64,000 bases of DNA from a virus. Taxonomy: Duplodnaviria; Heunggongvirae; Uroviricota; Caudoviricetes. This document shows positions 44,263-47,200 of the stretch, in pieces. The position numbers and the translations under genes were made by a program. The notes beneath the pieces are model-generated. The model ran no database searches and had not been told where the DNA came from. It saw only the letters and a program-made list of their open reading frames with translations. The stretch is taken from positions 1-64,000 of IMG/VR virus record IMGVR_UViG_2923350032_000001; one strand, 5' to 3'. Within the stretch, counting starts at the first letter, position 1. The number at the start of each line of letters is the position of its first letter.

Positions 44263-47200
44263 AAGAGCTGTGCTATGGATCTGTTTGCAGTGGAATTGAA
44301 GCCGCGAGTATTGCCTGGGAACCGTTGGGTATGCGTCCGGTTTGGTTTGCTGAAATCGAGCCTTTTCCATCGGCCGTTCTTGCGCTCCGCTGGCCCCATG
44401 TCGCCAACCTTGGCGACATGACAAAACTTGCCAAAAAAGTCTTGGCTGGGGAAATCGAATCCCCTGACGTGCTCGTCGGGGGAACACCATGTTTTACCGC
44501 GGGGCATATGGTTCTTTGTAAAAATGGTTATAAACCAATAGAAGATATTTGCCCTGGCGATTACGTAGTCAGTCATCTCGGGCGGTTACAACAAGTAAAA
44601 AGAGTTGGTTCAAAAATAGCTAATACGGGGTTACTTAATGCCGTTGGGCAGCCTTTAGGTATAAGAACAACCAATGACCATCCCTTCCTGGCGGTTCGGT
44701 GGAAAGCCCAAAACACCCGGAAAAATGGCACATATTTTAAGAGAGAGTTGTTGTCTGAACCGGAATGGCGAGCAGCATGTGATATGCCGGGATATCAATG
44801 GTGCGCTCTAACTAATTTCAATATTGCATCTCCAGATATTTGTTCTCGGTTCTTGTCTGAAGAACAGGCTATGTATCTTGCGGGCGCTTATGTTGGCGAT
44901 GGATATATTAGGAGATGGAGAGGTAAATCTAAGAAGGCGGTTGTTTTTGGCATAAATTGCCAGAAATTGAGAAAGTTTCATTGCCGCATACCAGAAAACA
45001 TATTTTCCGTGGCAAGCGAAATCCGAGGGAGCATCAAAGTAACCTTGAATGATACGTGTTATGCCAATTGGCTTAATGAACATTTTGGCGAGTTAAGCCA
45101 TGCTAAGCGTATCCCTGCATGGGTGATGTCGCATCCATTGCGTCATGTGTTTTTACAAGGCTATCTTGATACTGATGGGACACCAAGTGGTAAAGCGGGA
45201 TTTAGAATTAATAGTGTTAGTCCTGCGCTTGCTTGGGGCGTTGCGGGGTTGTCACAGACTTGTGGTTATGTTTCTTCGGTCAGCTTTATTGAAGTTGAGC
45301 CCAAAAAAGTGATCGAGGATCGCGTGGTAAATCAACGGAATTATTATCAGGTAACAATCTGCCCGCAGAAATTGTCACGTAAATCAAGATTGGCTCATGG
45401 AATGCTTTTACGAACAGTCAAAGAGTTTAAATCGGTAGGCCTAGATACTGTATACAACATAGAAGTCGAAGGTGATCATTCCTATATCCTCAATGGTGCG
45501 GTGGTCCATAACTGTCAGGCATTCAGTATCGCGGGCTTACGTGGTGGGCTTGATGATGAACGCGGCGCGCTAACTTTGAAGTATGTGGAGCTTGCAAATG
45601 CAATTGACGACAAACGGTCTGAGTCCTTCCTCAAACCGACAGTTATCGTCTGGGAAAATGTCCCAGGAGTCCTGTCATCGGCAGATAACGCCTTCGGATG
45701 TTTCCTTGCCGGATTGGCTGGAGAAGATGCGCCATTTGAACCAGGTGATCGACCTGAATCAGGAAAAAGTAACGCGTTCTGGCGGTGGGATGGCAAAACC
45801 GGTTGCCATGCTCCAAAGTGGCCGCAGTGTGGTTGTATTTATGGACCGCAGCGAAAGGTGGCCTGGAGAATCCTTGATGCCCAATACTTCGGAGTGGCAC
45901 AACGACGCCGACGCGTGTTTGTTGTCGCAAGTGCTCGAACAGACCTCGATCCCGCAACGGTACTTTTTGAGTTCGAAGGCGAGCGCCGGGATATTGCGCC
46001 GAGCAGAGGCGAGGGGAAGGAAACTACCAGATATACTTCAAACATCGCTATCAGATCTTGCGATGATACAAACATAATTGCCATGGCACATGGGCAAGGA
46101 GGGGCTGAGATAAAAACCGATAATTCGGCACCAACTTTGACATGTAACCATGAAGCACCAATTGTATTGCTCGGCGACGATAGAATGCGCCGTCTTACCC
46201 CTGTCGAATGTGAAAGGCTGCAAGGTTTTCCTGATTGGCATACGTTGATCCCTACGGGAAAGCGTAAAAAAGTTTCTTCAGATGAACTGGCATACCTTCG
46301 CAATAACTATCCTGATTTAAACGAAGAAGAGGCCGCGATGCTTGCAGCTGACGGACCGCGTTACAAAGCGATCGGAAATAGTATGGCAATACCAGTAATG
46401 CGCTGGATTGGCGATCGGATTACTAAGGCTGCATGTCGGCAAAAAGAAGGGAGTGAAACAAAAGAGCGAAAGGTTAAACCAGCGGCAGAATTCGAACGGC
46501 CCATATTCAAATGGGCTGGTGGAAAATTTGGTGTTCTGGAACAAATCTTTCGCTATTTGCCAGAAGGGAAGCGCCTGATTGAACCTTTCGTTGGTGGCGG
46601 AGCTGTCTTCATGAATGCCGGATATCAGGAAAATCTGCTAAATGATGTGAATGCTGACCTGATTAACTTTTACAAGACTCTGCAACGTGAGGCGCATTCA
46701 CTTATCACTCTGGCACATCGTTTCTTCCTGTACTACAACACCCAGGAGGGATTCCTGGCAGTACGGAATGCGTTTAACAAACAAGTCTATGATGATTTAC
46801 ATCGCGCAGCGGCGTTTTTGTTCCTGAACCGACATTGTTTTAATGGATTGACGCGCTACAACCAGGCCGGTGAGTTCAATGTCGGGTATGGGAAGTATAA
46901 GTCTACGCATTTTCCATTACAGGAGATGGAAGCCTTCCTCGGTGCGGAAGGGCGGTCTGAGTTTGTATGCGGTGATTTTGCAGCGGTGATTGAAGCTGCC
47001 GGAGAAGGAGATGTCATCTTTTGCGATCCGCCGTATGAACCGCTCCCCAATACAGAGGGGTTCACGAACTATTCCGGTCATGACTTTAAGTTTGAAGAGC
47101 AAAAACGCCTGGTGTCTCTGTTGACGGATGCTCATCGCCGAGGTGCAAAGGTTCTCATTACTAACAGTGGCGCGCCAAACATCAGAGAACTTTATCAGGA

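Follow-up and report, generated by a model that had tools for sequence, protein, structure and literature searches.

A predicted class 1 intein with a LAGLIDADG homing endonuclease domain in the Dmt methyltransferase of P1-like phage-plasmids

Described inteins closest to the insert in dmt

Inteins in which a class 1 HINT splicing domain is split by a double-motif LAGLIDADG endonuclease domain include PI-SceI (from VMA1 of S. cerevisiae) and the archaeal PI-PfuI, PI-PkoII and TliVMA. An insert that appears to follow the same design is found in the dmt methyltransferase gene of a P1-like virus, within a stretch of 64,000 nucleotides (nt) (positions 1 to 64,000 of IMG/VR record IMGVR_UViG_2923350032_000001; the window). 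The PI-SceI group provides the best structural matches to this insert (E = 7e-17 to 6e-9, TM about 0.55–0.64), and Cys1, the terminal His-Asn and the Cys at position +1 are common to both, but the sequences are only 11–16% identical. Compared with the 454–537 amino acids (aa) of the PI-SceI group, the insert is smaller (341 aa), and the extra DNA-recognition region of PI-SceI seems to be missing from it. The setting differs as well, since the extein is a DNA methyltransferase (MTase) and the host is a temperate enterobacterial phage-plasmid.

Methylases of other phages have been described as extein hosts. A preprint on actinobacteriophage inteins includes "DNA methylase ... C-5 (IPR001525)" among the proteins reported earlier to contain inteins; its accessible passages list the extein class, with no mention of the motif IV site or of enterobacterial phages (bioRxiv 10.1101/2025.01.02.630785). 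Methylases are not mentioned in the main text of Novikova 2016. In Propionibacterium phage B22, gp50 is of the same enzyme class as Dmt and is interrupted at the same site (GGSP^CF...VVHN^CQDLS, where ^ marks an intein junction); end to end, the B22 intein and the P1-type one share 30% identity, and they come from different hosts and phage lineages. The methylase inteins of cluster F mycobacteriophages (DNMT-1; Kelley et al. 2016, PMC5050341) have the same LAGLIDADG architecture and ~27% identity over the full length. For instance, the intein of Pacc40 gp60 (1501–2493 of the extracted locus) lies in an N4/N6 methylase and has unrelated flanks (MHV^CLARG...VVKN^CPLQ), and the insertion site thus differs from that of the P1 type. 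Taken together, the sequences suggest that the same intein lineage has moved between methyltransferase classes.

The insert in dmt has a textbook intein architecture in a known extein class and belongs, as an ordinary member, to a very large site-specific family of methylase inteins. That such an intein occurs in the P1 group, how frequent it is there and that a laboratory P1vir stock carries it all seem to be unreported. No paper on this intein in P1-like phages was found in open-access PMC and bioRxiv, where the matches concerned intein tags, toxin–intein tools or unrelated phages, and public records name the protein only "Dam family methyltransferase" and never mention an intein. A preliminary description of the window, made from its letters alone, knew of no description of an intein in P1 Dmt. 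This holds for papers on the P1 group, but the reference P1 genome is without the intein, and many phage C5 methylases have an intein at the same site. P1 ranks among the phages used most widely in bacterial genetics, and intein work has E. coli as its standard host, a species that is to our knowledge generally treated as having no native inteins. With natural intein-positive and intein-less alleles, lysogens and transduction tools, P1-like elements would offer a tractable enterobacterial system for intein homing.

Anatomy and predicted fold of the insert

The dmt open reading frame (ORF) of the window (44259..47300; + strand, as for all features given here) begins with GTG and encodes a precursor of 1013 aa, identified from the list of ORFs, from PF00145 and PF02086 matches and from similarity to dmt of OP279344. 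Its first 77 residues (44259..44489) form an N-extein that runs from C5-MTase motif I through the GGTP of motif IV (44478–44489). After the GGTP, which ends at 44489, comes an in-frame insert of 341 residues (44490..45512, 1023 nt; Dmt residues 78–418) that begins with CFTAGHMV and ends with VVHN, and the frame picks up at 45513 with CQAFSIAG; these limits, reported in the preliminary description, proved exact to the base. The insert splits Pro77 from the Cys encoded at 45513..45515 (Cys419 in the precursor, Cys78 in the spliced protein), which, from established knowledge of C5-MTases, we take to be the catalytic Cys of the motif IV "PC". In a protein alignment, the 341 extra residues are present in the window, OP279344 and RCS47 and absent, exactly at Pro^Cys, from P7 Dam (672 aa) and P1 Dmt (754 aa). 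Aligned to these two proteins without the insert, the window protein has a continuous motif IV, as had been predicted, and no comparable segment is seen as a normal domain of either. A constant accessory domain was rejected because orthologues lack exactly this segment.

It is very likely, given its sequence and modeled fold, that the insert is a canonical class 1 intein with a double-motif LAGLIDADG homing endonuclease, placed between the motif IV Pro and Cys of a P1-like dmt, and we infer that it both splices and cuts DNA. This reading was already that of the preliminary description, including the catalytic Cys at +1, and is supported by sequence blocks, profile hidden Markov models (HMMs), the predicted fold and precise presence or absence among alleles. 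The splicing domain is predicted to be of the HINT type, split by the inserted LAGLIDADG domain. Block A (CFTAGH, 44490..44507), with the putative N-terminal nucleophile Cys1, and a TxxH block B (TNDH, intein residues 61–64, 44670..44681) are recognized from the sequence and the alignment of homologues. The two LAGLIDADG-like motifs noticed earlier along with the TxxH block are LAGAYVGDG (intein residues 130–138, 44877..44903), with the acidic residue Asp137, and LQGYLDTDG (intein residues 222–230, 45153..45179), with Asp229. Blocks F and G (45450..45512), which are matched by TIGR01443 and align with the C-terminus of the Spl DnaX mini-intein, end in the penultimate His340 and the terminal Asn341. 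Homologues with as little as 30% identity retain the key residues: Cys1 is present in every aligned homologue that includes the N-terminus, Asn341 is invariant, Gly132, Gly138, Gly224 and Gly230 are conserved, and 126 of the 138 relatives matched end to end terminate in HN. The sequence also supports a double role for the +1 Cys, which would serve both as C-extein nucleophile of the intein and as catalytic Cys of C5-MTase motif IV.

Profile searches of the insert gave matches above cut-off to Pfam LAGLIDADG_3 (PF14528; 35.1 bits, cut-off 22.5; residues 221–284), Pfam Hint_2 (29.6 bits, cut-off 28.4) and NCBIfam TIGR01443, the intein C-terminal splicing region (intein_Cterm; 28.8 bits, cut-off 15.6), and sub-threshold matches to Pfam Hom_end and NUMOD4. 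Among PDB chains, sequence searches returned weak matches to the Spl DnaX mini-intein (E = 0.0014, over the F and G blocks) and to PI-PkoII (E = 0.027). An AlphaFold2 model of the intein, based on an alignment of 12 homologues, reached a pLDDT of 91.6 and a pTM of 0.89. The top PDB matches of this model in Foldseek are exclusively intein homing endonucleases (PI-SceI at E = 7e-17, TliVMA, PI-PfuI, PhoVMA and PI-PkoII, 2cw7), followed by the free-standing LAGLIDADG enzymes I-Tsp061I, I-SceI, I-AniI and I-OnuI (E = 1e-5 to 1e-3) and by mini-inteins. Both LAGLIDADG acidic residues sit at the ends of predicted helices (124–137 and 218–229). The intein is AT-richer than the adjacent parts of dmt (GC ~0.42–0.45 vs ~0.51–0.55), which is suggestive of a foreign origin and not decisive. 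No second intein was found by phmmer within the 64-kb window; the sole further match, of 11 bits near nt 24059, was rejected as a 28-aa chance match within a 69-aa non-coding ORF.

Deleting the insert in silico yields a protein of 672 aa, the same length as P7 Dam, and raises the PF00145 score from 109 bits for the precursor to 130 bits in a single stretch through the junction. Likewise, the TIGR00675 (dcm) score rises from 99.0, which misses the cut-off of 100.65, to 119. PGAP and other sources thus miss the C5-methylase call because the interrupted protein scores just under the TIGR00675 cut-off, and the annotation can be corrected on this point. In the proposed pathway, the HINT domain would fold within the 1013-aa precursor, Cys1 would perform an N–S acyl shift, and Cys+1, the catalytic nucleophile of the methylase, would then attack by trans-thioesterification to form a branched intermediate. 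Asn341 would cyclize and an S–N shift would finish the peptide bond, and the products would be a 672-aa Dmt with an intact motif IV and a free endonuclease of ~39 kDa. Since the insert splits Pro from Cys and the +1 nucleophile is the catalytic Cys, the C5-methylase domain should be inactive until spliced. The preliminary description had made methylase activity as a whole depend on splicing; this is arguable for the C5-methylase domain only, whereas the Dam-type (D12-class N6) domain is untouched. That domain is uninterrupted in the precursor and may work before splicing. The intein matters to studies of Dmt function or P1 methylation.

Relatives, distribution and alternative explanations

When 1.84 billion cluster representatives were scanned exhaustively with phmmer, the insert matched 4482 proteins at E <= 1e-3, 1624 at E <= 1e-10 and 192 at E <= 1e-30. 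Among the 138 best representatives with an end-to-end match, 118 have the P^C...^CQ context, and several others have motif variants of the PC^CT type. The relatives returned by a word-indexed protein search (30–52% identity) are all inside PF00145 proteins and all at GG(T/V/Y)P^CF...VVHN^CQ. Inteins at this site (P^C...N^CQ) occur in cytosine methylases of many phages, with 27–57% identity. Among annotated phage genomes, an intein fills this position in Mannheimia phage vB_MhS_587AP2 (48% identity), Propionibacterium phage B22, EBPR siphovirus 2, Lactobacillus phage Nyseid and the Asteriusvirus jumbo coliphages A4, ph0011 and UE-S1, and the records of these phages carry no intein label. The unannotated inteins of the Mannheimia phage and prophages, Asteriusvirus, Nyseid and EBPR siphovirus 2 (27–48% identity) share with the P1-type intein its position in C5-MTase motif IV (xxP^C...HN^CQ), but they interrupt single-domain methylases, unlike the C5 and Dam fusion of the P1 type. 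The Mannheimia prophage copy differs further in its broken C-extein, and the P0019 relative, on a phage-like contig, is a mini-intein without endonuclease. The Pro-Cys site of C5 methylases thus appears to be a major, little-discussed intein homing site in phages of Proteobacteria, Firmicutes and Actinobacteria.

The prophage copy was seen in M. haemolytica chromosomes, where a C5 methylase (8001–10321 of the extracted loci) holds a 47%-identical intein at the same site and has a frameshifted C-extein, leaving ORFs of 439 aa and 177 aa. Directly after the interrupted methylase gene come a free-standing HNH_3/NUMOD endonuclease gene and the prophage integrase, and the 439-aa product has index entries in hundreds of assembly blocks.

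The intein is present in 152 of 5426 complete E. coli genomes (2.8%), and all copies are at least 99% identical. A 200-bp synthetic "spliced" junction query located dmt in 492 complete E. coli genomes. The survey for intein-less alleles proposed in the preliminary description thus found an uninterrupted junction in 339 of these, and ~31% of the dmt alleles there have the intein. The 1023-bp intein DNA is also found in 133 PLSDB plasmids from Escherichia, Salmonella and Shigella, with E. albertii and E. fergusonii among the matches listed. Nearly all of these plasmids are classed as non-mobilizable by MOB-suite, and those fetched are IncY or IncHI1B. The copy in the P1-like phage-plasmid NZ_CP020936.1 (E. 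coli HB-Coli0, chicken) is 100% identical and has the same coordinates. OP279344, the genome of a laboratory P1vir lysate that forms plaques (bioRxiv 10.1101/2022.09.09.507302), also has the intein, and the intein-positive allele thus does not preclude a functional phage, at least if the host is Dam+. Damaged copies were also seen. In two E. fergusonii plasmids (NZ_CP070875.1, 106022–106097, and NZ_AP028818.1, 1–76) the match is limited to the initial 76 nt of the intein, which reflects either truncation or an artefact of the record start, and a 1022-nt copy in E. coli plasmid NZ_CP027223.1, annotated as two coding sequences, probably carries a frameshift. Degraded inteins thus coexist with intact ones.

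Ten intein-positive and eight intein-less dmt alleles were compared, and the ORF is open in all 18. Nucleotide diversity among the ten intein-positive alleles is 0.0065 in the intein, compared with 0.036 in the N-extein, 0.019 in the proximal C-extein and 0.029 in the distal C-extein, so that the intein is 3–5 times less diverse than the exteins of the same alleles. The 28 variable intein codons divide into 14 synonymous and 14 non-synonymous, none of them at catalytic residues. At least two haplotypes occur on each flank of the intein, which is combined with three target-recognition variants (1013, 1085 and 1095 aa). The two 3'-flank haplotypes also occur in intein-less alleles; the two 5'-flank haplotypes of intein-positive alleles are intact in none of the eight intein-less ones sampled. 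In the window allele, the 3' flank turns into the intein-less P1/P7 haplotype at most 24 nt past the intein end. The Pro codon directly 5' of the insertion (44487–44489) is CCA in 10/10 intein-positive and CCT in 8/8 intein-less alleles, counts that are uncorrected for shared ancestry. In many intein-less alleles the two codons before it differ silently (GGT ACG vs GGA ACA), and the empty site of reference P1 and P7 reads ...GTCGGGGG(A/T)AC(A/G)CCT^TGTCAGGCATTCAGTATCGC. These silent differences could mark co-conversion or represent variants of the sequence that the endonuclease targets. Taken together, the allele data fit a spread of the intein more recent than the divergence of the host alleles, as homing would give.

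We infer homing because the LAGLIDADG catalytic residues are intact and because of this population pattern. The endonuclease would be expected to cut intein-less dmt around ...GGAACACCT^TGTCAGGCATTCAG..., and repair from the intein-positive copy would spread the intein whenever two P1-like genomes share one cell. Homing of this kind would explain the patchy, low-diversity distribution among P1-like elements.

Several observations weigh against an intein that is active in both splicing and homing. The profile search proposed in the preliminary description succeeded with Hint_2, LAGLIDADG_3 and TIGR01443 but fell short with Pfam Intein_splicing (22.8 bits, cut-off 35.8), although Hint domains and inteins are represented by several models, of which this is only one, and others for inteins did pass. 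Solved inteins resemble the insert only weakly in sequence (best E = 0.0014), and the family alignment has an invariant Asn in "VYNIEV", presumably block F position 4, where many inteins have Asp. With half of the variable codons non-synonymous, constraint on the intein is only moderate, and low diversity together with mixed flanks could also stem from ordinary recombination among the mosaic P1-like plasmids after one ancient insertion. Growth of the P1vir stock is no proof of spliced Dmt, given that MG1655 is Dam+, and the P1 and P7 records annotate cytosine methylation by Dmt only as "perhaps at C5 cytosine".

An intein that splices but no longer moves, its endonuclease inactive or without a target, is unlikely but is the alternative that fares best. 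The pattern would then reflect one old insertion reshuffled by general homologous recombination between P1-like plasmids, with occasional precise loss. The mosaic structure of dmt alleles, with target-recognition swaps and mixed haplotypes in intein-positive and intein-less alleles, agrees with this explanation, as does the fraction of non-synonymous codons (14/28), but both LAGLIDADG acidic residues and the whole predicted endonuclease fold are intact, and the intein is 3–5 times less diverse than its flanks. Moreover, ~two-thirds of the alleles still have an empty site, and the switch of 3'-flank haplotype within 24 nt in the window is what short co-conversion tracts would give.

A splicing-dead insert is distinctly less probable. 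It would be tolerated if the C5-methylase half of Dmt were dispensable and knocked out, and if only the Dam domain mattered to the phage. The "perhaps" of the P1 and P7 annotations is compatible with such a state, and so are the altered motif IV of reference P1 (VWGTPC) and of another allele (VVGTPC), the PGAP name, which refers to the Dam family only, and the C-extein of the Mannheimia prophage homologue, which is frameshifted right after the intein. However, stops or frameshifts should have built up in a dead insert within a dispensable domain, whereas the 3-kb ORF is open in 10/10 sampled intein-positive alleles, the C5-MTase motifs of the extein are all intact, and Cys1, T61/H64, H340, N341 and Cys+1 are unchanged in the 10 alleles and across distant homologues.

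Beyond selfish spread, the intein could also act as a post-translational gate on Dmt, a proposal to which we give slightly less credence still: the precursor would provide the Dam (GATC) methylation needed for P1 packaging, and m5C would appear only after splicing. Such gated splicing could be conditional, for example redox-sensitive through Cys1 and Cys+1, the catalytic thiol of the methylase, or dependent on DNA binding. If so, m5C would differ in timing or extent between intein-positive and intein-less P1-like elements, and so would the anti-restriction phenotype.

Finally, another Hint-type module of the bacterial intein-like (BIL) kind, a normal accessory domain or an intron-like insertion deserves hardly any weight, since the +1 Cys, the terminal His-Asn, the nested homing endonuclease and the site in the most conserved motif of the host protein all oppose it, and it has in its favor the sub-threshold Intein_splicing score and the missing intein label in databases. 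BIL domains are Hint domains without homing endonuclease, found at variable sites of non-essential proteins and often without a +1 nucleophile; this class was rejected because the insert has an endonuclease domain and a +1 Cys and occupies the enzyme's most conserved motif. An intron was rejected because the insert is in frame, stop-free and predicted to adopt a HINT fold. Class 3 inteins have no N-terminal nucleophile and start splicing at the block F Cys of a WCT triplet; here Cys1 is present and block F is without Cys, and this class was rejected as well.

The Dmt methyltransferase and its surroundings

The dmt start overlaps the stop of an rdgC/hrdC homologue, and its product consists of the intein-split C5-MTase followed by a Dam-type N6-MTase. 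At the DNA level, dmt of the window shares 98% identity, along its entire length, with the gene annotated as dmt in OP279344 ("Escherichia phage P1"). The dmt genes of RCS47 and vB_EcoM-Ro157c2YLVW match it and have an extra segment, and the matches of P7 dam and reference P1 dmt cover only 60–66% of the window gene. All C5-MTase motifs, namely I, IV (PC), VI (ENV), VIII (QxRxR), IX and X, are intact and in order within the exteins. Motif I (CSGIEAA, 44286–44306) is in the N-extein. The first part of the C-extein (45513..46500), defined by alignment, profile and motif search, contains motifs VI (ENVPG, 45654–45668), VIII (QRRRRVF, 45900–45920), IX (46188–46232) and X (GNSMAIPV, 46374–46397), with a variable target-recognition region at ~46005–46187 (Dmt residues ~583–643). 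The second part is the D12-class N6-adenine MTase domain (46512..47213; PF02086 at residues 752–985, TIGR00571 at 247 bits), whose DPPY motif is at 47025–47036.

The target-recognition region has been swapped among alleles. A short type occurs in P7 and the window, the type of P1 and RCS47 is 82 aa longer, and a third length is found in the 1085-aa allele. Such swaps are seen in intein-positive as well as intein-less alleles and imply that cytosine-methylation specificities differ among P1-like elements. Motif IV varies too: it reads VWGTPC in the reference P1 Dmt (NC_005856; codon 74), VVGTPC in one plasmid allele and VGGTPC in all others. The widely used reference P1 strain may therefore have an impaired C5-methylase domain. 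An exact match to the predicted late promoter LPdam2, annotated in P7, lies inside dmt between motifs IX and X (46270–46288). Judging from its position upstream of the Dam domain, LPdam2 might drive the Dam part independently of the intein-interrupted N-terminus.

Directly downstream of dmt lies a 391-aa ORF (47665–48840) of the IS605-type OrfB/TnpB family of RNA-guided endonucleases, with Pfam matches to HTH_OrfB_IS605, OrfB_IS605 and Cas12f1-like_TNB. In P1, P7 and RCS47 this position is occupied by the ban operator region and the tRNA-Asn and tRNA-Thr genes; ARAGORN found no tRNA in positions 40000–52000 of the window. The P1-like plasmid NT1F10 has a TnpB gene at the same place as the window.

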